NCBI GenBank assembly: GCA_043818395.1
Contig: JBDRFZ010000030.1
Location: forward strand, 10,704 to 74,703
Origin: Patescibacteria group bacterium
Lineage (GTDB): Bacteria > Patescibacteriota > Patescibacteriia > 2-12-FULL-60-25
DNA: 64,000 nt
Direction of reading: 5' to 3'
Shown here: in pieces, positions 25,448 through 46,160 of the stretch
How the letters are laid out: every line of letters starts with the position of its first letter
Numbering within the stretch: the stretch's first letter is position 1
Program-made: the position numbers and the translations under genes
Notes under the pieces: generated by a model
Seen by the model: only the letters and a program-made list of their open reading frames with translations
The model's database searches: none
What the model was told of the DNA's origin: nothing

Positions 25448-27134
25448 ACCGACACTTAAATACACCATGTCCCTAAATATTTTGGGACCTCTGGGGACCC
25501 TCCACGCTAAAGCATCATGTTAACCATTACACCCGGCTGAGCACAGGACCCTCCAGAGACAGGGAGTCGTCGCTTGGCCAAGAGCCAGGTTTTTTTGTCA
25601 AAAAAAGAGGTAGATGATGATGAGGATCTTAAATGGATTTTCATCAGCGTCTGTCTCACCTGACCCGCACCGAATGTACAGGGGAGTAGCAGACCGGACC
25701 TCGACAATAAAATTGTTACGATGATGATAGAAAGTCATACGTACAAGGCATAAGAACCATATTCGCGATCAACAAGAGTTCCGATCGCGAATGCAATTGA
25801 TAGTAAAGTACACCTTAAAAAAAAATTAAACGAACCGTCCGGTTTTACCCCGCGATTTCCTCATTCGAATCGTGGTTCCGGATGGTCGAAGCACGAAAGG
25901 GCGTACGGTGGATGGCTAGGCAGTAAGAAGCTGATGAAGGACGTGGCAGCCTGCGAAAAGTCTCGGGGAGGTGGCAAGCAACCTGTGATCCGGGAATGTC
26001 CGAATGGGGCAACCCAAGTCGATGAAGTCGACTTACCCGTAACTGAATACATAGGTTATGTGGAAGGCACCTGGGGAAGTGAAACATCTCAGTACCCAGA
26101 GGAAAAGAAAAAAAGGAAATTCCAGCCCTAATTTCTGGTCGAGTCTCCGATCTTTGATCGGATGTGCTCGCAGAAATTAGAGCTGGATAATATTCCGTGA
26201 GTAGTGGCGAACGAAAGCGGATCAGTCTAAATCGTTTATGTGAGCTTTTACACCGAGTTGGACGCAAGTTTGACCGCGGGTAGGAGTGAAGGGCTTGGGC
26301 CGTCGCATATTCGAAGTTGTGGGCGGAAGCGTCGATTCCCCAAGGGATCGGCGCGTAATCGGAAAAAGATAATCGAATTCGCTGGAAAGCGGAACCAAAG
26401 ACGGTGATAGTCCGGTAGGTGAAATTTTTTTCCATGCGCGTGTTTCCGCACCAAAGTACTATGGGGCTCGAGAAACCCTGTAGGAAGCAGCCGCGACGAT
26501 GCGGCAAGACTAAATACTTCTTCTGACCGATAGTGAACAAGTACAGTGATGGAAAGCTGAAAAGCAGCCCGGGAGGGCGATGAAATAGTATCTGAAACCG
26601 TACGCTTACAAGGAGGTGGAGCCGAGCTTTGCTCGGTCACACCGTTCCTATTGAAGAATGAGCCGACGAGTGAGCTCTACGTTGCTTTGGGTTAAGTTCT
26701 TGCGGGAACGGAGCCATAGTGAAAGCGAGCCTTAATAGGGCGTTTTTGTAGCGTAGACTCGACCCGAAACCCGGCGATCTAGCCATGACCAGGATGAAGT
26801 CCCGTTAGTTCGGGATGGAGGTCCGAACCCACGAGCCGTGCAACACTCGGGGATGAGTTGTGGCTAGCGGAGAAATTCCAATCGAGCTGGGTGATAGCTG
26901 GTTCTCCCTGAAATAGATTTTGGTCTAGCGTTGATTAATAGCGTTGCGGGGGTAGAGCACTGAATGGGGGGCGGGGCGCAAGCTTACGTCTCCTAACCAA
27001 ACTCCGAATACCGTAACGTGTTCCCAACAGTAAGACGATGGGGGCTAAGCTCCATCCGTCAAAAGGGAAACAGCCCTTGATCGCAGACTAAGGTCCCTAA
27101 TTATGTACTAAGTGTGAAAGGTGGTGGGTCGGCT

Positions 27135-27172
<38 letters not shown>

Positions 27173-28028
27173 TAAAGAAAGCGTAACAGCTCACTGGTCA
27201 AGCTGACCTGCACCGAAAACTTACCGGGGCTCAAGTACATAACCGAAGTCGCGAATGTTTTCCGGTTTTTAACCGGAGGGCGTGGTAAGGGAGCATTCGT
27301 AACTGCGCTGAAGCGAAAGGCGTGAGCCATCGTGGAGCGTTGCGAAGAGAGAATGTCGGCATAAGTAGCAAAAAGACAGGTTAAAATCCTGTCCACCGTA
27401 AACCCAAGGTTTCCAGGGCAACGAGAATCGTCCCTGGGTTAGCCGGTCCTAAGGCCAGGCCGAAAGGCGTAACCGATGGATAGCAGGTGAATATTCCTGC
27501 GCTGCCTATAGGTTTCAATGGAGTGACGTGTTCTTGCATTTTTCGAGAATCCCGGAATGATTCTTCGGGCACGAAGGGGCGTGGTATAGGCAAATCCGTA
27601 CCGCATAAACCTCGTTGTGTACGCTAGTCTGCCGCGAGGCGGGCAAGGAAAGAGAATGGGGCACCAAGAAAACCTTCTAGAGTTAACCTGTAGGCATCCG
27701 TACCGTAAACCGACACAGGTGGGTGGGCATAAGTGTGCCAAGGTGTACGAGAGAACCCGTGTGTAGGAACTCGGCAATACAACGGCCGTAACTTCGGGAT
27801 AAGGCCTGCCCAGCTCAGCTGGGCTACAACAAAAGACGCAAACCGACTGTTTACCAAAAACACAGCTCCCTGCTAAACCGTAAGGTGATGTATAGGGAGT
27901 GATGCCTGGCCAGTGTCAGAACGTTAAGAGGAGGGGTCATACCGCAAGGTGGCAGCCCTGAATCCAAGCGCTGATGAACGCCGGCGATAACTATAATCGT
28001 CCTAAGGTAGCGAAATTCCTTGTCGGGT

Positions 28029-28787
28029 GAACAAAGTGTTCCACAAGAAGTGGTCGGACCCTGTAAAAATTACAGGATTAACACTCGCCCGAATCCTGCC
28101 GCGAGGCGGGATAAGCAAACTGACTCATAACGGTGAATCCCACATTCCGACGGACATCGGAACGGGAAATACCGTGGGAACTCTGTATAATACAAAATAT
28201 TATGAAGAGACCCGTAACGACTGACCCGAAAGGGGAGAGCCGATGGACATCGGCTAACACGTCAGCTCTTGTAAGAAAAAAACAATCCAGGGAGACGGCA
28301 TCTTATATAACAGGATTCGTAGATGGCGAAGGAAGTTTCTTGGTTTCGTTTAATCGGCGATCTGGGCTCAAGACGGGCATCGAAGTCCGTCCGAGTTTCA
28401 GTCTAAGCCAACATAAACGCAATCTAAGTATCCTTCAGTCAATAAAAAATTTTTTCAGATGCGGAGGCATTCGTTTTGATCGGCATGATCAGACTTATAA
28501 ATACGAGGTCAGAAGCCTCGGTGATTTATGGAATAAGATCATACCGCATTTCAAGACGATTCCTCTTAAGACATCAAAAGCAAAGGATTTTGAACTTTTC
28601 AAAGAGGTCTGTTCACTCATGCGAGCGAACAGGCATCGTTCAAAAGCCGGTCTTGAAAAAATATTGCGAATTGCCTATTCAATGAATAATATAGGCGCCA
28701 GAAAATATAAGTTGTCAGATCTCCTAAAGATCGTTACAAGATGAAAGTATAGTCTGAACTCTGATGAAAATCAGAGATAACAAATGG
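28029..28787 (+). mobile_element. 23S intervening sequence 1 (intron-like, about 760 nt) carrying a LAGLIDADG ORF
   Basis: The conserved exon sequence CTTGTCGGGT stops at 28028 and resumes as AGTTCCGACCCGCACGAATGG at about 28788. By recalled E. coli numbering this is roughly position 1930. Junctions are accurate to about 2 nt. Confidence 0.75.
28202..28744 (+). CDS. single-motif LAGLIDADG homing endonuclease
   Basis: YITGFVDGEGSFLVSF motif. About 180 aa from MKRPVTTD, although the listed ORF allows an earlier start at 28133. Lies inside the 23S insertion. Confidence 0.85.
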   Translation: MKRPVTTDPKGESRWTSANTSALVRKKQSRETASYITGFVDGEGSFLVSFNRRSGLKTGIEVRPSFSLSQHKRNLSILQSIKNFFRCGGIRFDRHDQTYKYEVRSLGDLWNKIIPHFKTIPLKTSKAKDFELFKEVCSLMRANRHRSKAGLEKILRIAYSMNNIGARKYKLSDLLKIVTR

Positions 28788-29303
28788 AGTTCCGACCCGC
28801 ACGAATGGCATAACGAGTTTGCGACTGTCTCCACATGGGACTCGGTGAAATTGCAAGTGGGGTGAAGATGCCCTGTACGCGTAGTCAGACGAAAAGACCC
28901 CGTGAAGCTTTACTACAACTTGATATTGGGTCGCGGCTTTTCATGTTCAGAATAGGTGGGAGCCTTCGGGCAACAGTGAGATACCACCCTTGAACTGACG
29001 CGATTCTCGATCCCTATCCGTGAATCCGGATGGGGAGACAGTATCTGGTGGGTAGTTTAACTGGGGCGGTTGCCTCCTAAAAAGTAACGGAGGCGTTCAC
29101 AAAGGTCAGCTAGGCGCGGATGGAAATCGCGCTGATTCCGCAATGGGATAAGCTGGCTTAACTGCAAGACCAACAAGTCGAGCAGATGCGAAAGCAGGAC
29201 ATAGTGATCCGACCGTACGATATCGGACGGCGGAAGCTCAACGGATAAAAGCTACTCCGGGGATAACAGGCTGATCGCGCCCAAGCGTCCACAGCGACGG
29301 CGC

Positions 29304-29344
<41 letters not shown>

Positions 29345-29375
29345 TAGAAGCTCCCAAGGGTTTGGCTGTTCGCCA

Positions 29376-29419
<44 letters not shown>

Positions 29420-30186
29420 AAAGATCGTGCTGTCTATAAATTCGACTATATGCTGGAAACTCTGGTTTGACTTCCAATTAGGAGTTGGAGTCTAAAGAAT
29501 CTCATGCTACAGGTTATAATAAAAAAATTATGACACGTAAAAAAGCATTGAGTGCAGACAATCAGCAGGGAAGATTACATCATCGTCTTGAACCATGGTA
29601 TGTCAGTGGATTTATTGACGGCGAAGGCAGTTTTCATATCGCGATTTATCAAGATCAAATAATGAAAACTGGCTGGAAGGTTATTCCAGAATTTCATGTC
29701 TCGCAAAGAGTTTCGAGCCGGTGCGTCCTTGACGCACTTGTAAGATTCTTTAAATGCGGTTATGTGAAAATGAATCACCGATTGAATCCGAAAGATGTTA
29801 CCTATGTATATGTAGTAAGAGATCGAAAAGATTTAGCGACAAAAATCATGCCTTTTTTCCGCCGGTATAAGTTACAAACAGAGAAAAAAGAAGATTTTAA
29901 AAAGTTTTCTCAGATTATCGAGTTGATGTTAAATGAGCGTCATCGAACGTCTGTCGGACTAAAGCAGATCATAAAGATCGCATATTCTATGAATGGTTCC
30001 GGCCGTTATCGAAAACGACCAAAAAAGACGATTTTATAAAACCCTCAGAGACTATATGTCGAAAGCCGATATGCATCGGTTAAGATATAGTCCGAACTGC
30101 ATGGCGACATGCAGAGTCCGACGGAAACGTCGGATCGCCACGGAGCGAAATCAGATTATTGATGTGGTTTGCGAAGTAACAATGTG
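29420..30186 (+). mobile_element. 23S intervening sequence 2 (intron-like, 767 nt) carrying a LAGLIDADG ORF
   Basis: The exon GTCGTGAGACAGT ends at 29419 and resumes as TCGGTCTCCTGTCTAC at 30187. This lies within the peptidyl-transferase-centre strand, near E. coli position 2600 by recalled numbering. Confidence 0.8.
29530..30039 (+). CDS. single-motif LAGLIDADG homing endonuclease
   Basis: YVSGFIDGEGSFHIAI motif. About 169 aa from MTRKKALS. Lies inside the second 23S insertion. Confidence 0.85.
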   Translation: MTRKKALSADNQQGRLHHRLEPWYVSGFIDGEGSFHIAIYQDQIMKTGWKVIPEFHVSQRVSSRCVLDALVRFFKCGYVKMNHRLNPKDVTYVYVVRDRKDLATKIMPFFRRYKLQTEKKEDFKKFSQIIELMLNERHRTSVGLKQIIKIAYSMNGSGRYRKRPKKTIL

Positions 30187-30664
30187 TCGGTCTCCTGTCT
30201 ACTACGCGCGTGGAATATTGAGAGGGCAAATCTCTAGTACGAGAGGACCGAGATTTACGAACCTCTAGTGCACCAGCTGTCCCACCAGGGGCACCGTTGG
30301 GTAGCTACGTTCGGCGCGGATAAACGCTGAAAGCATATAAGCGTGAAGCCGTCCTCAAGATTAATATTCATTATGAGAGCCCTCCGAGACGAGGAGGTTG
30401 ATAGGCCGTATGTGTAAGACCTGCAAGGGTTTTAGCAGAGCGGTACTAATAGCTCCATGCTTCGACCATCCGGGATTACGATATCCAAAATCCGTAAAAT
30501 GATTTTGCGTATCACAATCCGGATATGGTTAGAAAAATTTTAAACGTGTACTTACATCAAGGTATGCCTTGTACGTACGACTTTCGATCATCAAAATGTG
30601 AAGCTTTTAACTTGCAGGTTACAGGCCTTATCCTTCGGCGATTATTCGTGATTTTTCATGGATA

Positions 30665-30785
30665 TCCGCCGGTGGCTTAAGCGGCAGTGTCACACCTGTT
30701 CCCTTTCCGAACACAGAAGTTAAGCCTGCTAGCAGCGATGGTACTTGGACCCAACCCGGTCCTGGAAGAGTAGCCCGTCGCCGGA
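30665..30785 (+). rRNA. rrf: 5S rRNA
   Basis: CCGAACACAGAAGTTAAGC and GATGGTACTTGG...CCTGGAAGAGTAG blocks. The terminal helix is TCCGCCGG pairing with TCGCCGGA. Confidence 0.9.
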
Positions 30786-30795
30786 CTAAACAGAT

Positions 30796-30917: not shown

Positions 30918-31781
30918 TCACGGCTTTTCCGTATCTTCTGTTTCAAGTGTTGGGAAACGAAGTGTGAATGATGAACCCGAGCCGGGTTTTGAGATTACGG
31001 AGATTCGACCTCCTGCACATTCGACCAGGTTTTTAACAAAAGCTAGTCCAAGTCCATGACCATGTTCTTTGGTTGTGAAATAAGCATCGAAAATTTGAGG
31101 AAGATTTTCTGGCGTGATACCGCATCCGCTGTCAGAAATTAAGATTTCGATGAAACGCTGTGCATTTTCATATCTGCTGGATTTTGTGTCAATTTTCAGA
31201 CTGCCCTGATAGTTCATTGCCCAGAGGGCATTGTTTATCAGATTTTGTATGATGCGTGCGAACTGCTCTGGATCGATCTTTATATATACCGAGCTCTCTA
31301 TTGTAAGCTGCAGATCGATATCATGACCCGTGATACAGCTCATGGCAGTTGTTATCAGTATCTCGGAAATATCTATCCAAGTACTATGTTCTCCGATGGG
31401 TTTGCGCGCAAGTCGGTATAATTCAGTAGTTAATTCTTTGATTTTATCGCTAGCTCTCTCACATGTACGACGGCATCGTTCCCTATCTTCACTTTCGTTC
31501 AAAATATTTAACGGCATCAGCGCGTTATTAATATCATGCGCTATGCCCATAACCCTGGCCATTCTTTCTCGTAGTTCCGTTAGGATATTCGGTGGACATG
31601 TATCAGGGGTCACGACAACCGGGAATTTATTCTCCGGGACCGTAAGGTTTCCTGACTCAGGCATGGGTTTTGGCCTGATGCCGCTTAATGGTTTTAGCGT
31701 GCCGTCGCTTCGGGTTTGGCTGATAGGTCCGGTTACGTATTTTTTGGACATCTCCCTACCCCTCAATTCTTCAGGGTTCAT
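30918..31781 (-). CDS. soluble sensor histidine kinase (orphan, no adjacent response regulator)
   Basis: H-box IAHDINNAL, N-box NLINNALWAM, G1 DSGCGI and G2 GHGLGLAFV. No transmembrane segments. Confidence 0.8.
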   Translation of the reverse strand: MNPEELRGREMSKKYVTGPISQTRSDGTLKPLSGIRPKPMPESGNLTVPENKFPVVVTPDTCPPNILTELRERMARVMGIAHDINNALMPLNILNESEDRERCRRTCERASDKIKELTTELYRLARKPIGEHSTWIDISEILITTAMSCITGHDIDLQLTIESSVYIKIDPEQFARIIQNLINNALWAMNYQGSLKIDTKSSRYENAQRFIEILISDSGCGITPENLPQIFDAYFTTKEHGHGLGLAFVKNLVECAGGRISVISKPGSGSSFTLRFPTLETEDTEKP

Positions 31782-31984
31782 TTTTTAAGGTACAAGATTT
31801 CTATATGATAGCTTAGCGTTATTTTTAGGTCGAGTGGTTAAGTTGTTGAATATATCGTTTTTATCAAGTTTAGGTTATAAGCGATTTTTTTAGTCTTTAC
31901 ATACACATACATCAAAATATTAATAATTTTTATCTAATTTTAGCTTAATAGCTTAAATTTAGCTTAAAAATGTATATGTTACAC

Positions 31985-32013
31985 TTGACAAAAATTGAAA
32001 AGCATGCTATAGT
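31985..32013 (+). promoter_or_regulatory. near-consensus promoter pointing into the ORF-free left end of the GC-rich island
   Basis: TTGACA (31985-31990), a 17-nt spacer, then TATAGT (32008-32013). Confidence 0.5.
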
Positions 32014-32019
32014 GTTTGC

Positions 32020-32182
32020 GTAAAAATAAAGAAGGGTTGTAAAGGCAGTCTAGGCACCTTACAAATAAACTCAAAGGCTTGAAGGAGAGAGCAAGTCCGC
32101 GAATCCAATTTTATACACCAAGGGGTGATGGATTCGGGCGCTTTTTCCTAAAAGCTACCGAGTTCCATCACCCTTTTTGGTT
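32020..32182 (+). ncRNA. candidate ~160-nt terminated leader or sRNA
   Basis: Starts just downstream of the promoter. Hairpins TTGTAAAGG/CCTTACAA and GGCTTG/CAAGTCC are followed by a long terminator hairpin (32122-32132 pairing with 32164-32174, then TTTTT). There is no ORF. Confidence 0.35.
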
Positions 32183-32184
32183 GT

Positions 32185-32900
32185 CAGCTGGAACTTGAAA
32201 GGCAGACCCTACATTCTGCAAAACGGGCTTCGGCCCAAGCGCGGATACTCGAGGTACATAAAAAGCGGCTAGGGCAATAGTCAACAAAGTTTCGTTCGCT
32301 ACTCGCGAACACCGCCCAAAATACCGCTTCTCAATTCTGCCTTTCATATTCCAGCTCGCAAGAGCTTGAACCTTATAACTACCGCGATACTGATTGTTTT
32401 GGAGAATGAAATAGGAGAGAGATCCTGCTCCAAGATAATGAGTCGCATCTCTATTTGGTCCCGAACTAAAACGGGACAGTTGATTCGGAGTAATACCAAA
32501 ACCACCCGCCGAGAGAAGGGTGGCACGGCAAACAACCGGAGATCGACCTCGAAGTCCCTTAGAGAGACTTCGTAGTAACGAGTGCGTCCTGCCCTCTCCG
32601 ACCGTCGGAGGGGACCGGGACAGTCGCTACTACCATGGTTATGTAATAGACGACGGTCAGGACGCGACGAACTTTGACAACAAAATTCTGCTCAAGCGGA
32701 CGAACACCAATAACAATCATCTTGGGTTTCGTTTCGTCCTCTTAAGCAGAGCGCGGTTCTACTGAAGGAGTAACGCACTGGTGCGAAACTCTGGATGATA
32801 AACGGCGCTTGAAGAACGGAGGCCGGTGGCTAGATAAACCGCCGGTTAGAAAAATGGCAAAGTAGAACAAAAAAAATATCAAAATTAATTCGTTCGCGTC
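32185..32900 (+). ncRNA. candidate large structured RNA region (class unknown)
   Basis: No ORF of 60 aa or more has a ribosome-binding site. A 21-position helix with 19 pairs joins 32186-32206 to 32336-32356. A UUCG tetraloop hairpin lies at 32225-32236 and a GCAA tetraloop hairpin at 32353-32366. At least six further clean hairpins were noted, including 32458-32477, 32502-32523, 32550-32572 and 32584-32591/32658-32665. Confidence 0.35.
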
Positions 32901-33424
32901 AATTTTTTCCAAACAGTATTCAATAATAAGTTCGAGGCTCGCAATGAGCCAGAACAGAAAGGAGATCGAGAAAATAGCGGCACAGTTGAGTGCCGATCTC
33001 GCCGATCCGGAGCAGTTCCGGACGGTCATGGAGCTTGCGACCAACCGCTAGCTCCAAACCTCTCCCGCTGTTACGAGGTACAGCGGGAACAAAGAGGAAC
33101 CAACCTCAAAACGCACTCGGAGAGAAGCGCACACTTCTCATCCGATCCGAATTTTGGAAGCCCATAATTACTAAACTTGGGACTAAATCCAGACTTCAGA
33201 TCGGAGCAATCCGAAAATTACTCATGGATTCTCATTTGGCATCATAATCAAAGCGGCGGTAAAAAAGCCACCCACTGAGTTATGGAACCAAACGAGAAGC
33301 TATGAAGCCGGCACGGATAAATTCTGCACGTTGCAGGATCACGTGCGCGGTTGACGCGACTCAAACACGCACAAAACAAATATCGTGGAACGCCACGAGA
33401 ATACGTTTTGTGCAAAGGAGGCAG

Positions 33425-33610
33425 ATGGCCCATTGGCCAGCTTCCGGCCCCCACGGCCAGTGCCCGTGGTGTGGCGCGTCTGAAGACATCGGGGACTGCT
33501 GTCCCGATGCCCAGGCCGCCACCCGCGAGCCCGAGGCCGAGGGTTACCTCTGTGAGGGCGATGAAAACCGCTCTCACGGAGCCGACTCCACCCATCGGGT
33601 GGAGAATTAA
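33425..33610 (+). CDS. possible small Cys-rich protein (61 aa)
   Basis: AAAGGAGG lies 3 nt upstream of the ATG. The peptide MAHWPASGPHGQCPWCGAS...DCCPD has a zinc-ribbon-like Cys pattern. It could also be non-coding GC-rich sequence. Confidence 0.3.
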   Translation: MAHWPASGPHGQCPWCGASEDIGDCCPDAQAATREPEAEGYLCEGDENRSHGADSTHRVEN

Positions 33611-33826
33611 CCCCGGTGGGGAAACAAACGCACCGGCGTGAACCGGGACAGCTCGAACAGGGCGTCATGTGACGTCGTATCGAGTTGCGGGAGATGAGCG
33701 CCGCTTGAGGAGGGAGTGCAAGCGATCTTGCACGAGACTCCATGGCTCAAGCGCCGGAAATGACTGCCGGCGCCTAATCGCGGATTAGTCACCGCGTTTC
33801 GTACATTTCCCGGGTCTATCACCTGG

Positions 33827-34038
33827 GTTTGAGCAAAATCCTTGCTCTCTAAAACGACAGGTCGCGGCGCTTGATCACATGATCTAACATCGCGGGTTTC
33901 ACAGACCATGAATCACTCTTGAGTAATCAAGATCAATTCAAAACTGTGAGCTTGAGACGCCGTCTCCGTTTAGTAGAACGTAAAACTACAGCTACTCGCA
34001 TGCTCTCTTACGCTACTGCACAAGGCAATAGAGAGCAT
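33827..34038 (+). repeat. non-coding module A (paralog of module B)
   Basis: Shares these blocks with 35374-35603: GTTTGAGC(A/G)AAATCC, ATCGCGGGT(T/A)TCACAGACCATG, CAAAACTGTGAG(C/A)TTGAGACGC(C/A)GTCTCCGT and GAACGTAAA. It also shares a terminal hairpin whose loop contains CTGCACAAG. Confidence 0.75.
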
Positions 34039-34106
34039 CCGATCCTATTTCCGCACACTCCCATAAAGAAATCATTCTGGGTTCGTGGTTCGGAAATGAG
34101 ATCGGA

Positions 34107-34676
34107 TTATGGTCGGGCGTTTTCTTCCAATGCCGTTATTCGTTCTTCGTGGCGAAGACTGGCGTTCCGAAGGGAGGAAATCTCGATATCAACAGTCCGA
34201 TGATGCGTGGCGAACCAGTCAACATGCGTCAGAATCTCCTGCTTGAATTCTTGTAGATCATCCTTAGTCGCGAATCCAAGCAGATCATCCTTGGTGGCGA
34301 AACGCTCATCAAGGCGCCGGAATTGATCGTCTGTATGGGAAGATAGGTCGTGAACAGCCTCGAGTATGTCTTGAATTGAGGTTGTGTGTTCCTGGGAAAC
34401 AGATTTTAACCCTGCAACGTCCGTCTTCAGCTCGGTTACATCTGATTTTAACCCTGCAACGTCCGTCTTCAGCTCGGTTACATCCTTTGCAAGGATATTA
34501 ACCGTAGATTTGAGATCGGTCATGTCCTTCGTAAGACCGGCTACGCCTTTAGAAAGACCGGCCATGTCTTTAGAAAGGCCTTGGACTACATCTAAAATCT
34601 TTTCGTTGGCTGAATCAGCGGTCATATGGAGAGCATTAGTGAATGAAGAATAGCATCCTCTAAATACCGCTGCCAT
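34107..34676 (-). CDS. coiled-coil repeat protein (14-aa tandem repeats, ATKDDL motifs)
   Basis: 189-aa ORF. The repeat DVTELKTDVAGLKS occurs twice and FATKDDL occurs twice. The architecture parallels 45083..45478. The start (34676 or 34625) is uncertain. Confidence 0.55.
   Translation of the reverse strand: MAAVFRGCYSSFTNALHMTADSANEKILDVVQGLSKDMAGLSKGVAGLTKDMTDLKSTVNILAKDVTELKTDVAGLKSDVTELKTDVAGLKSVSQEHTTSIQDILEAVHDLSSHTDDQFRRLDERFATKDDLLGFATKDDLQEFKQEILTHVDWFATHHRTVDIEISSLRNASLRHEERITALEENARP
34402..34485. repeat. near-perfect 2 x 42-bp tandem duplication inside the coiled-coil gene
   Basis: GATTTTAACCCTGCAACGTCCGTCTTCAGCTCGGTTACATC(T/C) at 34402-34443 and 34444-34485. The two copies differ only at the last base. 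Confidence 0.9.
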
Positions 34677-34995
34677 AAATCGAGGGAGAGGTCAAGATGT
34701 GGATATTCGGAAACAGCGTTTTCTCGGTAGAAATCGTGATTCGAAAAAGTTCGAAGCACGATTTCTCTCGAGGAGAGAGAAAATTTTGATCGGATGATCT
34801 GAAGCGACGTCTCATACGTGAGCGAATCAAATCAGGCTCGGATCGAACGGCCGCGCGTAACGGTCGATAGCTCCATCGAGAGGTGAAGAAGAAACGTAAG
34901 CGCGGCTCCGACGCATTCGGGCAAGCGAACTCGGCGGATATTGAAACCCGCCTTTCAGAATGGAGCCCGCGGCTAGATAAACCGCGGGAGAGAAC

Positions 34996-35337
34996 ATGGC
35001 CGGCACCTACACCGTCACCGCCACCTCCGTCACCGCCACCTCCACCCCCGCCACCCTGCTCCGGTTGAGCTTCGGCTCGCCGGCGCAGAACGACGTCATC
35101 GTCCGCGACGCCGTCGTCGCCCTCGAGGCCCACAAGCTCGAGGGGGGGAAGCTGGTCCTACTGAATGGGCCCGCTTCCCTGCCAGTGGCTTGCGCCCTCG
35201 CGCACGGCCTCGGGCACATCTTCGGCGCCATCGGGGTCTTCGACCCCAAGATGGCGGGGTACGTAGTCGCGGTCAGTCATGACCCGACGTTCCCCGTGGG
35301 GATGACCATCCCAGCGTCGGAGGTGAAAGAGGGCTGA
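34996..35337 (+). CDS. Csx3-like protein (CARF-related cyclic-oligoadenylate ring nuclease family, Crn3)
   Basis: The segment GKLVLLNGPASLPVACALAHGLGHIFGAIGVFDPKMAGYVVAVSHDP matches my recollection of A. fulgidus Csx3 (G.VISGRGPIWLHCFLAHKYHH...AVYDPRLGAVVVQSH), including the His/Asp positions. Not verified by search. Confidence 0.5.
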   Translation: MAGTYTVTATSVTATSTPATLLRLSFGSPAQNDVIVRDAVVALEAHKLEGGKLVLLNGPASLPVACALAHGLGHIFGAIGVFDPKMAGYVVAVSHDPTFPVGMTIPASEVKEG

Positions 35338-35373
35338 TCACCCTCTCGAAACATATCTCGGATTGATCTCCGA

Positions 35374-35603
35374 GTTTGAGCGAAATCCCAGCTCTAGAAA
35401 ATGATGGGTCGTGATACGAGATCGAGAGATTAAGTATCGCGGGTATCACAGACCATGGAATTAGAAAAAAGTATCGTGTACTGAGTACCGGGTACTATCT
35501 CTCTAAACTCCAAAACTGTGAGATTGAGACGCAGTCTCCGTCCGTGGAACGTAAATTCACTAACACTCGAAACCCACCTAAGCCCTGCACAAGCTGCGGT
35601 GGG
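35374..35603 (+). repeat. non-coding module B (paralog of module A; its terminal hairpin is a paralog of 45023-45068)
   Basis: See module A for the shared blocks. The hairpin ACCCACC/GGTGGGT carries a loop containing CTGCACAAG. Confidence 0.75.
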
Positions 35604-35800
35604 TTCCTCGAACTGAATGTTTAAAAAAATGTCGTCTCGACTAAAACGGAGAGACCTTCAATTTGAAGATCCATTCGACTCGGCCACGGTTCTATTTTTT
35701 GGATAGGCCTTCGCTCAGGATGACAATTTTTAAACGCTCGATTCGAGGAAATGGTTCCTCCAAAACTTTCCCGCAGAACGCGGGAGAAAGGAGACGGCTA

Positions 35801-36385
35801 GTGAAAGTCGTACTCTGTGGACCCCCGCGTTCGGGGAAGTCCTGCCTAAGGCAGGGCTTAAAGGACGCGGTACGGAGCATTCCTGGGGCTCCGTACCCCT
35901 ACGTCATCACCGCGTGCCCCGACGGGGAGGGCTCGTGGTTCCAGGAGACGGTGAACTCCGACCCCGAGGCTGCTGCGAAGTTCAAGGCGGCCTACAAGAG
36001 CAAGTTCACCCCCGAGTTCGTGCGCAGGGTCGCGGACTCGGTGAAAAACTGCACCCTGTCTCTTACGCTGGTGGATATAGGCGGTATCCCCAGCGCAGAG
36101 AATAAAGAAATTTGCGCCGCCGCCACGCACGCCGTTCTTCTCGCAGGGGATACCTCGCGGTTCCCCGAGTGGCGTGAGTTTTGCGAGAAACTCGGAATCT
36201 CTGTCCTGGCCGAGATTGCGAGTAACTACCAAGGCCAGGAAGACTCCCCGCCGTATCTCGACGGCGACGAGGGAGTCTTCGTCGGTTCGGTTCACCACCT
36301 CGAACGCGGTGAACCGGTCGCAGAGCGCCCGACTGTCAAGGCGCTCGCCGAGATTCTGGTCGCGTTGGTCGGCGATCAGGAGTAG
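35801..36385 (+). CDS. P-loop NTPase (kinase/ATPase-like), function unknown
   Basis: AAAGGAGA SD and a GTG start. Walker A (VVLCGPPRSGKSC), an ACPDGEGSW segment and a Walker-B-like LSLTLVDIGG. Confidence 0.6.
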   Translation: MKVVLCGPPRSGKSCLRQGLKDAVRSIPGAPYPYVITACPDGEGSWFQETVNSDPEAAAKFKAAYKSKFTPEFVRRVADSVKNCTLSLTLVDIGGIPSAENKEICAAATHAVLLAGDTSRFPEWREFCEKLGISVLAEIASNYQGQEDSPPYLDGDEGVFVGSVHHLERGEPVAERPTVKALAEILVALVGDQE

Positions 36386-36405
36386 TTAGACCAACCGGGC
36401 GAAGA

Positions 36406-36737
36406 GATCCCTCGACTTCGCTCGGGACGACAGAGGGCAGGAGATATAGCGACTCCTCTTTTAAACAATTCGCTTATCACTCGAAGCTCGGTTGCACATC
36501 CGGGCTCTTCGAATGGAAGTTTGATTGAATTCGTCATTCCCGGGAAAATGGGAATCCAGGTAGCTTGCTGATGGATCCCCGCTTTCGCGAGGATGACGTA
36601 GATCGAAAATCCGTTCGAGGAAGAGTTCCTTGTGTTTTTCTTTCCGCACAGGTCCGGAACAGATGCCTATTTTGACGGATGAGTCAGATGACTCTCTCCG
36701 TCAGGCTACCTGTTATCTTAGGGGGAAGTTCCGGATC
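36406..36737. repeat. left copy of a ~300-bp imperfect direct repeat (E and D modules)
   Basis: E1 (36406-36459) and D1 (36653-36737) are colinear with E2 (43904-43956) and D2 (44123-44207). Shared strings include ACAGAGGGCAGGAGATA, ACTCTCTCCG and GGAAGTTCCGGATC. Confidence 0.6.
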
Positions 36738-36759
36738 GGTGCGGGAATAAAAAACAAAA

Positions 36760-36984
36760 TCAAATTAGTTTTATAAAGTCTTCCGGTGACAGATCGATAT
36801 CGCGCAAAATGCCTCTGAGCGTACCGCGCGGCAAGTCTTGATTGCCATGCATGGGGATGGTTGCCAACCGACCATCACGATGGCGTAATTGAACATGGCT
36901 GCCGCGTTGTCGCGTAATCATAAACCCTGCTTTTTGCAGGGTTGCGATCAATATTTTACCGGAGATAACCGGAAGCGGCGGCAT
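36760..36984 (-). CDS. hicA: HicA-family mRNA interferase toxin
   Basis: 74 aa. GKILIATLQKAGF ... RQRGSHVQLRH is a typical HicA/YcfA core. Confidence 0.85.
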   Translation of the reverse strand: MPPLPVISGKILIATLQKAGFMITRQRGSHVQLRHRDGRLATIPMHGNQDLPRGTLRGILRDIDLSPEDFIKLI

Positions 36985-36989
36985 AACGA

Positions 36990-37223
36990 TCAGATTTGCG
37001 GTTCAGCTACTGTCTCGAAAGTCTCAAAGCTTCTGTCTTCCGGAAGTGACTCGCGATTGGCTGCCATATCTTCCAAATAAAGCTGGATGGCTTCGCGGAT
37101 ATTTTGTTTGGTTTCTTCCAAGGATTTGCCCCAGGTATGACAACCGGGCAACGAAGGTACGAAAGCATGAAAAGACTGACCCTCATCCGGCTCGATGATT
37201 ACTCGATAAGTCAATGCTCTCAT
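36990..37223 (-). CDS. hicB: HicB-family antitoxin (N-terminal UPF0150 fold only)
   Basis: YRVIIEPDEGQSFHAFVPSLPGCHTWGKSLEETKQNIREAIQLYLE. Sits directly upstream of hicA. Start taken at MRALTYR. Confidence 0.8.
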   Translation of the reverse strand: MRALTYRVIIEPDEGQSFHAFVPSLPGCHTWGKSLEETKQNIREAIQLYLEDMAANRESLPEDRSFETFETVAEPQI

Positions 37224-37253
37224 ATGTCTGAAGCCTAACATCGGACGGACGGC

Positions 37254-37305
37254 CTGTCAAAGGCCAAACCTTCCCTTGTCAAACCTTCCCTTGTCAAACC
37301 TTCCC
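37254..37305. repeat. tandem 15-bp repeats TTGTCAAACCTTCCC (2 perfect, 1-2 degenerate)
   Basis: Perfect copies lie at 37276-37290 and 37291-37305, with degenerate copies at 37254-37275. Lies between divergent hicB and the 37404 gene. On the minus strand each unit contains TTGACA. Confidence 0.85.
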
Positions 37306-37403
37306 ATGCTTAAAAAAGGTTCTAAAATTATTTGGAATCTTTTTTGAGGATGAGTATCCTCTGGCGCGCCGGACGAATTCCGGATTTGGCCAACGGAGGA
37401 AAC

Positions 37404-37754
37404 ATGGCCAAAAAAATTCTCTGGATGTCGCGCCATCGACCGACGGCGCGGCAGATCCAGTCGCTCCGCGTCATGTATGGCGCGGATACGGTCGTCGAAG
37501 TGGAGCCGCGGCCCTTCGACGACGCGCGACAGATCGCGCGGCGATTCAAGGAAGGCGGATTCCACGATCTCGTGGTCGTGGCGCCGCTTTCGGTCCTGGC
37601 TGTCTTGTGCGATCAGGGGCTTAAACCTCTGTGGTCACAGGCGGCCGAGGAAAACGATCCCGCGAAGATCGAATTTCGCGGGGCACGTGGGCAGGGCTAC
37701 CGCTTCGTCCGGTTTCGCCGAGTGAAGCGAGTGGCAGTCGAGTTTGAGGACTAA
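37404..37754 (+). CDS. hypothetical protein (116 aa)
   Basis: GGAGGA SD 4 nt upstream of the ATG. GC-rich codon usage consistent with the neighbouring genes. No motif recognised. Confidence 0.5.
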   Translation: MAKKILWMSRHRPTARQIQSLRVMYGADTVVEVEPRPFDDARQIARRFKEGGFHDLVVVAPLSVLAVLCDQGLKPLWSQAAEENDPAKIEFRGARGQGYRFVRFRRVKRVAVEFED

Positions 37755-37778
37755 CAAAAACAAAAAGGAAAGGAAAAA

Positions 37779-38051
37779 ATGGTCCAGAAAGTCTGGACCC
37801 TGGCTTCGGGTCAGGAGGTCGTGGATCGCGACGTCTCGCATATCCATGCGGGCGTCACGGACGAACTCTTATCCGAGGCACTCTCGTCGCTAAGCGTAGG
37901 TGACGGAGAGCGGGTCAAATATACGCATTTCTTCAGACGCACGGTCGGTGTCTCCCATTGCGTGAAAACGCAGGACGGGGAAGCTCCGAAGCGTCATGGG
38001 CAAGCGGTCATCTGCCTTTTTGTGGACAAGATAAACGGGTGCGGGAGTTGA
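37779..38051 (+). CDS. hypothetical protein (90 aa)
   Basis: AGGAAAGGA SD-like stretch before the ATG, 24 nt after the previous stop. Confidence 0.4.
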   Translation: MVQKVWTLASGQEVVDRDVSHIHAGVTDELLSEALSSLSVGDGERVKYTHFFRRTVGVSHCVKTQDGEAPKRHGQAVICLFVDKINGCGS

Positions 38052-38098
38052 TTGGTTCTCTCGCAAGTCCACCCCAAAACTCCGGAAAGGAGAAAACC

Positions 38099-38452
38099 AT
38101 GAACAAGGAAGAATGGAAAGAAGAAAAAGCGCGTCGTCAGGACGCGCTGAAAGAATTTGAAACAAAAAACGCGGCCGAGCTCGAGGCCGCCCGCCACTTG
38201 TTGGCGGAGAACGAGCGCCTGCGCCGGTTGGCGTGGGCTGGCGCCCCCGAAGGGCACGCCCGTTGTTACGGCTACGACGAAGAGTCGGACGTCGACTGCG
38301 ATAAGGTCGTGCCTTTGCGGGAACATGAAAGTGTTCCCGTGGGGTGGTGTATTCGCACCTATGGCTGCGGGTGCAGTGAGCCAGAGACAATGTTTTGTCC
38401 GGCACATGCGCACCAGGCACGCGAAGACCGTTGTGCCGAATGCAGTCGTTAG
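38099..38452 (+). CDS. hypothetical Cys-rich protein (117 aa)
   Basis: GGAAAGGAGA SD before the ATG at 38099. N-terminal helix, then a C-terminal cysteine cluster (CYGY...DC...CIRTYGCGC...CPAH...CAEC). Confidence 0.45.
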   Translation: MNKEEWKEEKARRQDALKEFETKNAAELEAARHLLAENERLRRLAWAGAPEGHARCYGYDEESDVDCDKVVPLREHESVPVGWCIRTYGCGCSEPETMFCPAHAHQAREDRCAECSR

Positions 38453-38605
38453 TTCTTTCTCGCGGTGCGCTCACGTTTTGTGATGCGCACCGCCCGTTTT
38501 TTTCGTACATATTGGATGGTCCGATGTGCACGGAAAGTTCGGTCGGCGATGACGTAATCGTCGCTACAAAAAAAAGGCCGCCAAGGGCGGCAGAAAGAGA
38601 ATCAC

Positions 38606-39820: not shown

Positions 39821-39861
39821 CGGACCCGTAGGGGCGGGGTCTCCCCGCCCAAGGAGGATAC

Positions 39862-41652: not shown

Positions 41653-41822
41653 GGGCACAGCGTGCTGTGCCCCTACGCTCGGACGACGTTTGCCGCATCG
41701 TCTTTTGCTCTCGGGAAGCGCAGCACTTGCGCTTCCCCTGATTTTTTCCGTCTGGAGCATGGTGCTCGAGATGGGAAATTTCAGTTTTTCGGCCGTGCAT
41801 GGCCAAGTAAAAGGAGGCCGCC

Positions 41823-43886: not shown

Positions 43887-43903
43887 AAAAACCCGAATAA
43901 AAT

Positions 43904-44207
43904 ATCCCTCAACTTTATTCGGGACAACAGAGGGCAGGAGATATGACAGCTCCTCTCATCGCAAGATGAAAAACAATCTGTCTGCACCTTGGGCGCGGCA
44001 ACCGTGCCCCTACGGGGAAGGATGAGATTGCACATCTCATCTTTCCCTCCTGAATTTTCTGACGTTTTTTAAAAAAGGTCGGAATGACAGGTTTCTCACA
44101 CGAGGTGGGTTTTCAGCACAGATTCGGAACAAGGCCTATATTGATTGGTTAGCCTAGCGAACTCTCTCCGCCGGGTCGCCCGTAATCATAGGAGGAAGTT
44201 CCGGATC
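43904..44207. repeat. right copy of the E and D direct repeat
   Basis: See the entry for 36406-36737. Confidence 0.6.
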
Positions 44208-44385
44208 TATGCGGAAAAAATGTAAAAAACACTCATGGTCATGAGTCTGATTAAAGTTAGACTCATGCCTATGATTGGGCAGATGGTTCAAATCCACACG
44301 AATAAGACGCGAAGCAATTATGTCGGACGTTTGAATGATCCAAGACTGGATCGATCGTGTGGAGGAGAGCAAGAAGGAAATAGAA

Positions 44386-44964: not shown

Positions 44965-45031
44965 TCGTTCCACCCTCTCCTGACATCCGGGGTTGTCAGG
45001 AAAAAAGAGGTTCGTAACCCTAAAACTCGAA

Positions 45032-45063
45032 ATCCACCGAAGCGTGCACATGCTGCGGTGGAT
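45032..45063. terminator. bidirectional terminator hairpin at the right edge of the island (paralog of the module B hairpin)
   Basis: ATCCACC/GGTGGAT stem with a loop containing TGCACA. A T-run lies to the right and an A-rich stretch to the left. Sits between convergent genes. Confidence 0.6.
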
Positions 45064-45082
45064 TTTTATTTTTAGATGAATT

Positions 45083-45478: not shown

Positions 45479-45499
45479 GGTTAAATAATATAAGCAAGA

Positions 45500-45862: not shown

Positions 45863-46160
45863 TTGCACCCAGCGATGTTTTTTATTTATGTTGAGCCAAT
45901 AATTTGGGTTTTTGTTATTTGTACTACAATGTATTTACGAAGTTCGCCATCGTTCTTTAATACCCACTTTCAAAAAGCGGCGAGCCTCAAAACCCGAAAA
46001 AAAATACGGGTAAAAACAAAAACACAAAAACCAGATCGTTCTTGCCGCAGCCCAGACAAAAATTCTGGGACGCGGAAATGATACGGTCTGGCAAATACGA
46101 TTTTCTGTTGACTTGATTTTTAAGGTCGTTTTTAGAACGAGGGTGTATAATATTCGATAT

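Follow-up and report, generated by a model that had tools for sequence, protein, structure and literature searches.

The interval 31985-32182 of the window, by which we mean the whole 64,000-nucleotide stretch of DNA analysed here, from a Patescibacteria (CPR) MAG, consists of a promoter, a conserved hairpin and a built-in terminator that together open a large structured non-coding CPR RNA, and probably switches this RNA and the genes behind it on or off. The RNA is a new, CPR-specific family of structured non-coding leaders. More than 30 homologous loci were recovered from CPR genomes and metagenomes, and these share a common layout on one strand, in which a promoter is followed by a hairpin, a hairpin with a T-run and a structured 3′ domain. 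The sequence of the window locus itself is present in data from CPR-rich groundwater (JGI 3300014656, ENA ERZ27247128). The RNA is ~0.6-1.4 kb long across the family, and in the window it starts at ~32020 and ends no earlier than 32860, probably at ~33235 (Table 1).

When the whole window was compared with Rfam 15 (which includes riboswitches, T-box, r-protein leaders and Y RNA) at the gathering threshold only rRNA and tRNA passed, permissive Rfam scans of 31700-33500 and 33400-46000 returned chance-level matches only (a group-II D1-D4 match at 33021-33114 was dismissed, E = 4.1), and nine homologous loci yielded rRNA and tRNA alone. The Rfam comparison, which had been suggested in an earlier note on this DNA made from the sequence alone, thus found no known cis-element that explains the region. 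A blastn comparison of 31950-33000 with phage and plasmid collections gave no match. The sequence GGCTAGATAAACCGC was matched 17 times in viral contigs, never in a hairpin context, and these matches are therefore attributed to chance. The papers searched on Csx3 with CPR/Patescibacteria and on MoxR/vWA contained no description of such an RNA, and none of them connected Csx3 with CPR RNAs.

Table 1. Positions of the sequence features in the window
Feature	Position	Strand	Basis or remark
Three AGCTTAA units as inverted repeats upstream of the -35	31940-31968		read from sequence
Sigma-70-type promoter TTGACA-17-TATAGT (TGCTATAGT)	31985-32013	+	11/12 score, TG extended -10
Conserved motif CACCUUACAA, 3′ arm of hairpin 1	32056-32065	+	12-13 loci
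P2 hairpin (hairpin 2), stem 32076-81/32092-97	32076-32097	+	covaries
GGAGAGAG, 5′ partner of loop-terminator pairing	32084-32091	+	pairs with 32141-32148
CGAAUCCA, antiterminator arm of the earlier note	32100-32107	+	pairs with 32129-32136
Intrinsic terminator: ~24-bp hairpin with internal loops, apex GCUUUUUCCUAAAAGC, then UUUUU	32120-32179	+	-35.1 kcal/mol
CUUUUUCC, 5′ side of terminator apex, 3′ partner of GGAGAGAG	32141-32148	+	complementarity
Variable long-range hairpin domain CAGCUGGAACUUGAAAGGCAG ... CUGCCUUUCAUAUUCCAGCU	32186-32362	+	MFE fold
Second GGAGAGAG motif (32414-32421, AUAGGAGAGAGAUCC) and partner GCAUCUCU	32411-32480	+	conserved nhmmer blocks
Conserved 3′ core	32537-32635	+	covariation
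Conserved blocks GACGAACUUUGACAA ... CUGCUCAAGCGGACGAA ... UUCGUCCUCUUAAGCAG	32660-32770	+	nhmmer and blastn
Hairpin with loop CUAGAUAAA	32822-32845	+	~10 nt before vestigial ATG GCA AAG TAG
Non-coding element 'E3'	33050-33235	+	blastn conservation profile, nhmmer
csx3 (34996-35337) and P-loop 'AAA' gene (35801-36385)	34996-36385	+	Pfam Cas_csx3, PADLOC
bpMoxR ATPase (38606-39820) and vWA protein (39862-41652)	38606-41652	+	Pfam; high-GC3 island

Promoter, purine-loop hairpin and terminator

The -35 element TTGACA (31985-31990) is separated by 17 nt from the -10 element TATAGT (32008-32013), which is preceded by TG, and the site is the sole promoter of such score in 31500-33600. The near-consensus match on which the earlier note had built was upheld by the comparison of alleles and homologs: allele L020/L021, although diverged elsewhere, keeps the -35 and TGCTATAGT unchanged, and a TTGACA-16/18-TAnnnT arrangement is found at the equivalent position in all homologs. 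Transcription is predicted to start near 32019-32021. Inverted repeats of the GGCTAA..TTAGCC or TAGCTAA type occur at the same place as the AGCTTAA units in most homologous loci, and TAGC[TA]/[TA]GCTA was matched 64 times in 30 loci compared to 14.7 expected, some of these matches being supplied by the TGCTATA box of the divergent promoter; the AGCTTAA repeats are a candidate operator or upstream promoter element.

Two hairpins had been proposed to follow the promoter. In the case of hairpin 1, TTGTAAAGG (32038-46) does pair with CCTTACAA (32058-65) in the window, only via a bulged A, but the helix is not conserved: in the nearest allele the outer pairs cannot form, and in the 13 loci with CACCUUACAA the best upstream complement measured 4.46 nt compared to 4.53 nt in shuffles, so hairpin 1 was rejected as a conserved helix. 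The CACCUUACAA motif itself is found in 12-13 loci at a similar distance from the promoter, with an upstream partner that is not conserved. A related sequence, ACCUUAUAAC, is present at 32368-32379.

Hairpin 2 (henceforth referred to as P2) was confirmed, although one nucleotide to the left of its proposed position, and covaries across homologs. Its arms, GGCTTG and CAAGTC, include a G32077·U32096 pair that has become A-U in L020, and they enclose an invariant 10-nt purine loop, AAGGAGAGAG (32082-32091), the family-wide invariant form of which is (A)AGGAGAGAG. The P2 stems differ in all 31 sequences while the loop is unchanged, and the covariation score was 0.613 compared to 0.203 for shuffles (0/500 reached the observed value) and at most 0.285 for slid controls.

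The terminator begins with an 11-bp basal stem (32122-32132/32164-32174) that includes G32122·U32174; its nominal loop pairs further (32133-37/58-62 and 32140-45/50-55), and the UUUUU run is at 32174-78. The hairpin (32120-32176) is retained in the 883-nt fold of the larger RNA, and the 168-nt leader folds with z = -3.45 (none of 200 shuffles was as good). A hairpin with a T-run is found at the same place in ~27 of the 31 loci, with sequences that are unrelated between loci. The median best hairpin with a T-run had -17.4 kcal/mol compared to 0.0 for shuffles and -4.7 for the opposite strand, and -10 kcal/mol or better was reached in 67% of cases; the figure was 5% for shuffles and 37% for the opposite strand. 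The long intrinsic terminator described in the earlier note, with its 11-bp stem and TTTTT, is therefore confirmed as a sequence feature and its equivalents are enriched in the homologs, whose G·U pairs also bear out the plus-strand transcription that had been read from a single G-U pair. A simple terminator scan, which allows loops of at most 8 nt, missed the window terminator because of this limit alone.

The P2 loop is complementary to the terminator. In most loci the 8-nt complement of the loop is CUCUCUCC, on the 5′ side of the terminator, and in 18/30 loci the terminator hairpin contains a complement over all 8 nt, the null mean being ~4.2 nt. The GGAGAGAG:CUUUUUCC pairing of the window uses two G·U pairs and occurs in the MFE structure of the leader. 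One locus (L110) has a compensatory pair, GGAGAGAC with GUCUCUCC, and C/U variants elsewhere (CUCUCUCC, UUCUUUCC, CUUUCUCU and others) all retain the pairing by G·U, which means that it works in plus-strand RNA only. Judging from these sequences, the conserved competing or tertiary pairing is that of the GGAGAGAG loop with the CUCUCUCC-like stretch in the terminator; the invariance of the loop exceeds the needs of base pairing alone. In at least 14 loci the loop pairs with what is otherwise the 5′ arm of the terminator, an arrangement seen in loci with short terminators, and loop pairing and terminator are mutually exclusive there. The pyrimidine stretch of the window, like that of its closest relatives (L113, L125, L129, L132 and L063), lies towards the apex of a long terminator; in this apical class the 11-15-bp basal stem could form and terminate despite a paired loop, and the loop contact may be purely architectural.

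The antiterminator of the earlier note is a different pairing, between CGAATCCA (32100-07) and TGGATTCG (32129-36). The complement is perfect over 8 bp, and the pairing forms part of the MFE structure of 32018-32185, where it lies within a ~30-bp composite helix (32068-32107 with 32129-32164) that displaces the terminator; this alternative fold has -53.3 kcal/mol compared to -49.7 kcal/mol for the terminator fold. A pairing that excludes the terminator, as expected of an attenuator, is therefore found both in the window, as the composite helix, and in the loci with short terminators. In most homologs the terminator fold is the MFE, and forced alternatives were 3-30 kcal/mol worse in nested folding. 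Inspection by eye of four relatives (L030, L113, L129 and L132) revealed no equivalent of 32100-07/32129-36, and this antiterminator was accordingly rejected as a feature of the family. Overall, the earlier interpretation is partly supported: the sequence elements that it listed are present, but hairpin 1 proved not to be conserved, and the antiterminator that it specified was not recovered in the relatives inspected.

The downstream RNA and its gene context

The region 32018-32900 folds with z = -7.7 (z = -6.7 for the minus strand). No ORF with coding-like GC3 or a Pfam match was found in 32020-32940; over 32020-33600 coding potential (ORFs, GC3, Pfam) was unsupported, the 35-aa and 61-aa ORFs present there having no homologs in the genome loci, and no protein similarity to the region was found. 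The RNA thus has the attributes of a large structured non-coding RNA, with no coding signal, covariation in both P2 and a 22-pair core, and a stable fold, and the 'further hairpins' of the earlier note are indeed structured non-coding RNA. Its statement that no gene lies behind the terminator holds locally, there being no credible ORF for ~0.9 kb, but in relatives the RNA leads into AAA/csx3 and MoxR-vWA genes.

A hairpin of 56 to 303 nt directly follows the terminator in most homologs; the hairpin domain in this position in the window is an optional expansion outside the conserved core. The 3′ core comprises a hairpin whose loop reads ..AGAGA, followed by GUAGUA-ACGA-GUGCG, a variable hairpin and CAG-UCGC-UACUAC. 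For its 22 pairs in 24 sequences, the paired fraction of cells is 93.7% compared to 75.6% in shuffles, and the covariation score is 0.537 compared to 0.178 (0/500 shuffles), with compensatory changes in 13 pairs and frequent U·G pairs. The window scores 75.8 bits with a covariance model of the core (R1), which retrieved extra members solely on the plus strand, upstream of AAA. Further downstream, a second hairpin with the CUAGAUAAA loop, its stem differing by compensatory changes, is found at 34965-34988 before csx3, and hairpins of this kind precede real ORFs in L063 and L132; similarity between the RNA 3′ end and the csx3 5′ UTR is confined to this hairpin. Element E3 was matched by nhmmer in L132 (twice), L125, L102, L129, L063 and L113, and in L125 it directly follows the RNA. 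Module X had no homolog in the other loci searched.

The csx3 and AAA genes constitute a split Csx3-AAA (PADLOC Csx3-AAA match, 8.8e-58) and keep synteny with the RNA in CPR loci. High-GC3 islands with csx3/AAA and/or bpMoxR-vWA are headed by the RNA, which is always on the gene strand. It reaches the AAA start codon in L061, L030, L118 and L040, and the bpMoxR-vWA pair comes directly after it in L116 and L128. In three loci (L033, L027 and L110) the RNA and AAA are set apart by an oppositely oriented tRNA gene, and there the RNA is not just a 5′ UTR. The island proteins share 70-80% identity across CPR classes and their genes have high GC3 in hosts of ~40% GC, and they appear to move between CPR lineages. 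Csx3-AAA and bpMoxR-vWA are commonly classed with defence or conflict systems. The AAA protein folds as a P-loop NTPase of the SIMIBI type (GPN-loop, MinD or SRP-like), and this fold gives no clue to RNA binding; Pfam and PADLOC annotation of the downstream genes offered no metabolic or ligand clue, and the neighbouring histidine kinase has no exact protein match on record.

A proposed conditional terminator and competing interpretations

The best reading of the locus, and a reasonably probable one, is in our view that synthesis of a giant structured leader is controlled by a conditional terminator, either a pseudoknot or an antiterminator attenuator; the leader would head a horizontally spread, high-GC3 island. 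The analysis established the promoter, hairpin, terminator, complementarity, conservation, strand and gene context; we infer the actual termination or read-through, the direction of the switch and its trigger, as follows. The strong sigma-70 promoter would fire and, ~60 nt into the RNA, P2 would form and present its invariant loop; ~100-160 nt in, a strong intrinsic terminator would arise, with the CUCUCUCC-like complement of the loop on its 5′ side. By default the terminator would form and a short RNA of ~155 nt would result. Capture of the emerging pyrimidine stretch by the P2 loop, as an H-type pseudoknot, would block or delay the terminator and allow read-through into the large domain and the genes; in the window this capture could be extended to the ~30-bp antiterminator helix that includes 32100-07/32129-36. 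The balance would be set by a factor that recognises the purine loop, candidates being an island or host protein, a small ligand, or the 30S subunit, the last because the loop mimics a Shine-Dalgarno sequence. Points against this reading are the apical contact in the window's class, the terminator fold as the MFE of most homologs, a loop more invariant than base pairing requires, and the three loci with an intervening tRNA gene.

A partly overlapping interpretation, possible but in our view doubtful, is that of one large architectural or functional RNA, made constitutively to serve the Csx3/AAA or MoxR-vWA proteins, for instance as scaffold, sensor or cofactor, in which the hairpin with its U-run is a structural helix only and GGAGAGAG:CUCUCUCC is a tertiary pseudoknot. 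The strongly structured and covarying 3′ domain is what such an RNA would have, as are the loop contact at the terminator apex in the window's class, which is compatible with the stem, the GAGAG-type motifs that recur in hairpin loops, the ACCUU..GGAGAGAG unit that occurs twice, the additional conserved non-coding elements downstream and the co-occurrence of the RNA with the island genes. However, a purely structural helix would not need the T-run that lies behind the hairpin in nearly every locus; moreover, in many loci the pyrimidine stretch is the terminator 5′ arm, where both pairings cannot coexist, and the domain between terminator and core varies from 56 to 303 nt. More unlikely is a stand-alone sRNA of ~155 nt, with the downstream RNA as a separate entity, whose GGAGAGAG loop would act in trans on CUCUCUCC-like targets or titrate a protein in the manner of CsrB/RsmZ. 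A promoter, stable hairpins and a terminator are typical of an sRNA gene, the invariant hairpin loop contains A(A)GGA, and the 5′ module was found without a detected 3′ core in L024, L034, L052, L054, L064 and L081. Nevertheless, the plus strand shows no promoter between the terminator and the 3′ domain, from which it follows that the 3′ domain is made by read-through only; the complement of the loop is in cis, in the same module, and there are only 2-4 copies of the motif.

The literal model of the earlier note, a metabolite riboswitch with hairpins 1 and 2 as aptamer and 32100-07/32129-36 as antiterminator, has in its favour the 8-bp complement and the near-isoenergetic folds in the window; given that hairpin 1 is not conserved, that the antiterminator has no counterpart in the relatives inspected, and that no Rfam aptamer match and no evident ligand, pocket or metabolic gene context was found, we regard this model as quite improbable. 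Least credible of all, to the point of being nearly negligible, is that the region has no RNA function and represents DNA-level inverted repeats, a mobile-element end or a decayed coding sequence at the island edge. The site does lie at the left edge of a repeat-rich high-GC island, the left flank differs in L020/L021, and the minus strand folds well too, but the compensatory changes and the many G·U/U·G pairs make sense on the plus strand only, homologs are on the gene strand only, the promoter and T-run are conserved, and protein similarity is lacking.

Relation to known RNAs and significance

As with attenuators and pseudoknot riboswitch platforms (preQ1-I, SAM-II H-type), a promoter-proximal hairpin has a loop that can pair with terminator sequence, and exclusive or near-isoenergetic folds, a conserved layout and covarying stems are shared; the HMP-PP 'thiS' element, a known sensor that overlaps its terminator, was also compared as an expression platform. 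In contrast to these platforms, the CPR RNA matches no known aptamer in Rfam and has an invariant 10-nt purine loop without a known ligand, its gated product is a long non-coding RNA with conflict-system genes and not a metabolic operon, and one subclass has an apical contact that need not block the stem. OLE, GOLLD, ROOL, raiA and HEARO/omega RNA likewise extend over hundreds of nucleotides without an ORF, have several covarying helices and are lineage-restricted, with functions that are not known. The large RNAs OLE, GOLLD, ROOL, raiA and HEARO had no sequence or structure match to the CPR RNA at E-values up to 10, and the CPR RNA differs from them in its 5′-proximal internal terminator, its strongly length-variable parts and its tie to csx3/AAA and MoxR-vWA. 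CsrB/RsmZ-type RNAs share the repeated GGA purine motif in hairpin loops and a Rho-independent terminator, whereas the CPR RNA has GAGAG-type copies in the small number given above, a longer motif (GGAGAGAG) and a complement in cis. CRISPR-associated RNAs (leader, crRNA, tracrRNA) were considered because csx3 adjoins; however, a repeat search of 31700-46000 found no CRISPR array, the window has neither a repeat-spacer array nor cas genes, and csx3/AAA travels with MoxR-vWA instead of CRISPR.

The genomes of CPR/Patescibacteria are tiny and tightly packed, yet this locus spends 1-2 kb on conserved, covarying non-coding RNA under a consensus promoter; in genomes so compact, conserved non-coding RNA on this scale is unlikely to lack a function. 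This RNA is linked to Csx3-AAA/bpMoxR-vWA, genes without known function outside CRISPR loci. We tentatively suggest, as a possibility and not as the expected outcome, that it is a new large functional class and an integral part of a conflict or quality-control system, specific to CPR, of Csx3/AAA and MoxR-vWA, with example roles as scaffold, sensor or substrate for the island proteins; its synthesis would be under a pseudoknot-controlled terminator that senses the invariant AAGGAGAGAG loop. The defined cis-module, with its invariant loop and complementary terminator, provides a directly testable handle. Importantly, if the large domain is a functional partner of the proteins, the family would represent a new large RNA class and the first mechanistic entry to these CPR islands.

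Promoter, P2 hairpin and terminator

Homologs of the RNA came from GTDB genomes, where the surroundings of AAA homologs were searched with nhmmer, and from metagenomes, which were scanned with a conserved two-block pattern and the hits checked by nhmmer. The former gave 12 to 18 species-level genomes, according to the number of modules demanded, and the latter more than 20 contigs (loci are designated by L numbers), every homolog having the same orientation as the island genes. A search for the promoter followed by GGAGAGAG returned 17 loci, 17/17 on the plus strand. Distant relatives share a layout of eight parts in fixed order, from upstream repeats through the core. The single 11/12 promoter match in 31500-33600 is the TTGACA-17-TATAGT at 31985-32013 and, as TTGACA-17-TAnnnT also belongs to the common layout of the relatives, the near-consensus promoter proposed in the earlier note is upheld. 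From 32078 to ~33455, two metagenome contigs (L020 and L021) match the window at 100% identity. In 31939-32077 they depart from it at 38 positions, and farther left they bear no relation to it. Neither the -35 box nor TGCTATAGT is altered within this patch of differences, indicating that the promoter moves with the RNA and not with the host flank.

All differences from otherwise 100%-identical metagenome contigs form four dense patches (31939-32077, 33456-33511, 35617-35655 and 35764-35860), which take in the promoter with the initial 60 nt of the RNA, a portion of the 61-aa ORF, and the AAA start region; such patchiness in the sequences points to mosaic recombination among island alleles. The DNA 5' of the promoter is AT-rich in the relatives, with GGCTAA..TTAGCC-type inverted repeats; repeats of this or the AGCTTAA type lie 5' of the -35 box at 31840-31968 in the window and at equivalent positions in ~17/30 loci. 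Most relatives also have a divergent TTGACA-17-TGCTATA promoter ~95 nt upstream; the window has a degenerate version of it (TTGATA), pointing towards the histidine-kinase gene.

Features of the RNA and of the adjoining genes (window positions unless a locus is named)
Feature	Position	Strand	Description
Promoter	TTGACA 31985-90, TATAGT 32008-13	+	17-nt spacer; TG extended -10
Hairpin 1			TTGTAAAGG/CCTTACAA; pairing requires bulge
Hairpin 2 (P2)	GGCTTG 32076-81 with CAAGTC 32092-97	+	one G·U pair, 10-nt loop AAGGAGAGAG
Terminator	32120-32176, then UUUUU	+	~24 bp, -35.1 kcal/mol; base is the 11-bp stem 32122-32 with 32164-74
E3	33050-33235		conserved, non-coding: ACUCGGAG-hairpin-CAUCCGAUCCGAAUU...CUUCAGAUCGGAGC
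CUAGAnAAA-type hairpin	32822-32845, 34965-34988; L063 ~8497-8520; L132		loop CUAGAUAAA; relatives CUAGAGAAA or CUAUAUAAA
Histidine-kinase-like gene	ends 31781	-	
csx3	34996-35337	+	island gene
P-loop 'AAA' gene	35801-36385	+	with csx3, split Csx3-AAA; PADLOC 8.8e-58
Three small genes	between AAA and bpMoxR		island; no assigned function
bpMoxR	38606-39820	+	island gene
vWA protein	39862-41652	+	island gene
687-aa protein	after vWA gene		island; function unassigned

The 31 sequences of P2 have 31 distinct stems around an identical loop, and its covariation score of 0.613 compares with 0.203 for shuffled data (0/500 shuffles as high) and at most 0.285 for slid registers. The second hairpin of the earlier note is thus a conserved, covarying stem; in L020/L021 its G·U pair has become A-U. 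The first hairpin did not hold up: its two outer pairs are gone in L020/L021, and the CACCUUACAA motif has no conserved pairing partner (best complement 4.46 vs 4.53 nt). In the layout of the relatives the P2 loop is (A)AGGAGAGAG, and the CACCUUACAA motif lies 5' of P2 in a subset only. The AAGGAG of the loop resembles a Shine-Dalgarno sequence as well as a CsrA site. The RNA has two copies of the motif pair ACCUU(A)NAA(C) and GGAGAGAG, in this order, one lying in the 5' module (32056-32091) and the other 3' of the variable hairpin domain (32368-32421). This repetition suggests an internal duplication or two binding sites for one factor.

The proposed terminator, with its 11-bp stem and UUUUU, was likewise recovered, and a hairpin ending at a T-run lies ~150-290 nt past the -35 box in ~27/31 loci. 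In a uniform scan, a hairpin plus T-run of -10 kcal/mol or below was present in 67% of loci, the corresponding figures being 5% for shuffles and 37% for the opposite strand, and the fold of the 168-nt leader (z = -3.45) beats 200/200 shuffles. The terminator hairpins have no common sequence (GGGGUGAUGGAUUCGG in the window; ACGCGCUCUCUCC, AGCGGCAAAGAUCG, AAGCCGAGGCUUGC and others elsewhere). Overall, our confidence is high that the RNA is genuine and conserved, and that a promoter, the P2 hairpin and a terminator belong to it.

Predicted pairing between the P2 loop and the terminator

The earlier note had envisaged an antiterminator formed by CGAATCCA (32100-07) and TGGATTCG (32129-36). The two are exactly complementary, but no counterpart was seen by eye in the sequences of the relatives; what stands is an alternative pairing in principle, and not this specific one. 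Judged from sequence comparison, the conserved pairing is that of the P2 loop with a stretch of the terminator: a full 8-nt complement of GGAGAGAG lies within the terminator hairpin, mostly on its 5' side, in 18/30 loci (shuffle mean ~4.2 nt). C/U variants of the complement continue to pair via G·U (CUCUCUCC; CUUUUUCC in the window, 32141-48; UUCUUUCC; CUUUCUCU), and in L110 the contact contains a compensatory pair, GGAGAGAC with GUCUCUCC. In the window the contact extends to a ~30-bp composite helix (32068-32107 with 32129-32164) that includes the 8-bp pairing of the earlier note and is the minimum free energy (MFE) structure, at -53.3 kcal/mol compared to -49.7 for the terminator fold. In most homologs the nested MFE is the terminator fold, so that the conserved loop contact would be a pseudoknot, a class of structure to which the programs used give no score.

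In short terminators (for example L107, L026, L126, L106, L027 and L061) the 5' arm of the terminator is formed by the CUCUCUCC stretch, and P2-loop pairing and terminator are therefore mutually exclusive; the two helices are of comparable strength in this class. In long terminators (the window, L113, L125, L129, L132 and L063) the pyrimidine stretch is apical, and the basal 11-15 bp stem could still form despite the loop contact. We lean, by a little, towards the 5' module acting as a conditional terminator. In the mechanism we infer, as regards both the direction of the switch and its trigger, the terminator would form by default and yield an RNA of ~155 nt; if the P2 loop captured the pyrimidine stretch, read-through would become possible, and something recognising the invariant purine loop might modulate this capture. 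The 5' module is in this respect like terminator-based attenuators and pseudoknot riboswitches, although no described family matches it.

The downstream RNA

In line with the earlier note, no gene follows locally: 32018-32900 contains no ORF with coding-like composition and no Pfam match. This region folds with z = -7.7 and its minus strand with z = -6.7, so fold energy alone is insufficient to assign the strand; G·U pairs in P2, the terminator, the loop contact and the core place the RNA on the plus strand, in agreement with the note. In the interval from the terminator to the 3' domain the plus-strand scan found no further promoter. After the terminator come a variable hairpin domain (56-303 nt), a second GGAGAGAG(A)UYCC motif paired with GCAUCUCU, the core, with the pattern GUAGUA-NCGA-GUGCG, hairpin, CAG-UCGN-UACUAC, and further blocks 3' of it. 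Across the 22 pairs and 24 sequences of the 3' core, 93.7% of cells are paired compared to 75.6% when shuffled, the covariation score is 0.537 compared to 0.178, and 13 pairs have compensatory changes, with many U·G pairs. The core covariance model found extra members only on the plus strand, upstream of AAA, in CPR loci, and no members in cyanobacterial csx3-AAA loci. No Rfam 15 family matched the window RNA, even at E up to 10, and described families were not matched in the homologous loci; hence no known cis-element accounts for the region. In size and covariation the whole RNA is like the large orphan RNAs OLE, GOLLD, ROOL and raiA, none of which it matches.

Conserved non-coding sequence in the window reaches ~33235 as E3, which is also found in L125, L102, L129, L113 and L063 and in two copies in L132. 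An adjoining match to group-II-intron D1-D4 was not significant (E = 4.1). Just two ORFs, of 35 and 61 aa, lie in between, and neither has a homolog in the genome loci. The two CUAGAnAAA-type hairpins of the window have stems that differ through compensatory changes; the loop-CUAGAUAAA hairpin lies ~10 nt 5' of a start codon lacking a Shine-Dalgarno sequence (csx3 or small ORFs) and is a candidate translation-control element. The csx3 5' UTR (34800-34950) has a conserved block, GGUCGAUAGCUCCAUCGAGAGGUG...GGCUCCGACG.AUCGGGC, in common with L063 and L038.

The gene islands behind the RNA

The window has ~40% GC and carries host genes for 5S rRNA and, accompanied by LAGLIDADG ORFs, for 23S rRNA. 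In the island, from ~32020 to ~45060, the GC content climbs to 50-65%, with plus-strand genes of GC3 0.7-0.9. The 23S match (25885-30786 region) exceeds the model by ~660 nt and has a LAGLIDADG endonuclease ORF (28133-28744) within it; another LAGLIDADG ORF (29485-30039) sits in the interval from the end of the match to the 5S gene, and upstream the 16S gene is absent. L063 has the same order of 23S, 5S and RNA. Minus-strand insertions of host-like composition (34107-34676 and 36760-37241) break the plus-strand island, one being a coiled-coil gene with a perfect 42-nt tandem duplication (34402-34484) and the other a hicA/hicB toxin-antitoxin pair.

The island also contains repeats. Module X, a ~200-nt non-coding repeat (33827-34010 and 35374-35625; L021 1-215) for which no homologs were found in other loci, has conserved blocks CGCGGGUNUCACAGACCA and AACUGUGAGNUUGAG and a small hairpin with a compensatory change (GAGACGCCGUCUC vs GAGGCGCAGCCUC). 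One copy lies between csx3 and AAA, and that of L021 has a strong terminator at its end, just 5' of the RNA promoter. The AAA gene and the 687-aa gene each have a non-coding stretch of ~350 nt behind them (36393-36759 and 43890-44229); the two stretches are paralogous, with 75-78% identity. The 31-nt unit AAGAGATCCCTCGACTTCGCTCGGGACGACA occurs four times (36402, 40419, 40501 and 43899); two copies are inside the vWA ORF, within a segment unaligned to homologs, which suggests in-frame insertion of a repeat element.

A protein identical to the AAA protein is on record from the metagenome-assembled genome of a 'Patescibacteria group bacterium'. The AAA protein has more than 1000 homologs at 70-80% identity, mainly in CPR metagenome-assembled genomes, and its SIMIBI-type P-loop fold is uninformative on the RNA. 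No CRISPR array is present in the window. In the literature library searched, no paper connects Csx3 to CPR bacteria or to an RNA of this kind, and the only one to treat Csx3 alongside MoxR-vWA systems concerns protein architectures. Among L116, L128, L133, L132 and L142, other islands lie behind the RNA; they have bpMoxR and vWA without csx3/AAA, and also encode high-GC3 proteins of ~295-305 aa that share an 'F/LDHH' motif and lack a Pfam match.

The RNA reaches the AAA start codon in L061, L030, L118 and L040; in L063 and L132 it extends to a small ORF that has the CUAGAnAAA hairpin in front of it. Among contigs found by the RNA pattern alone, csx3/AAA follow in L102 and L132, bpMoxR and vWA without csx3 in L116 and L128, and uncharacterised high-GC3 genes in others; in L033, L027 and L110 an opposite-strand tRNA gene intervenes. 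Because the genes behind it vary and a tRNA gene intervenes in some loci, the RNA heads a variable island family and is not the 5' UTR of one gene. The feature at 31985-32182 is the 5' end, and probably the gate, of a new, CPR-restricted family of conserved structured RNAs tied to Csx3/AAA and MoxR-vWA islands.
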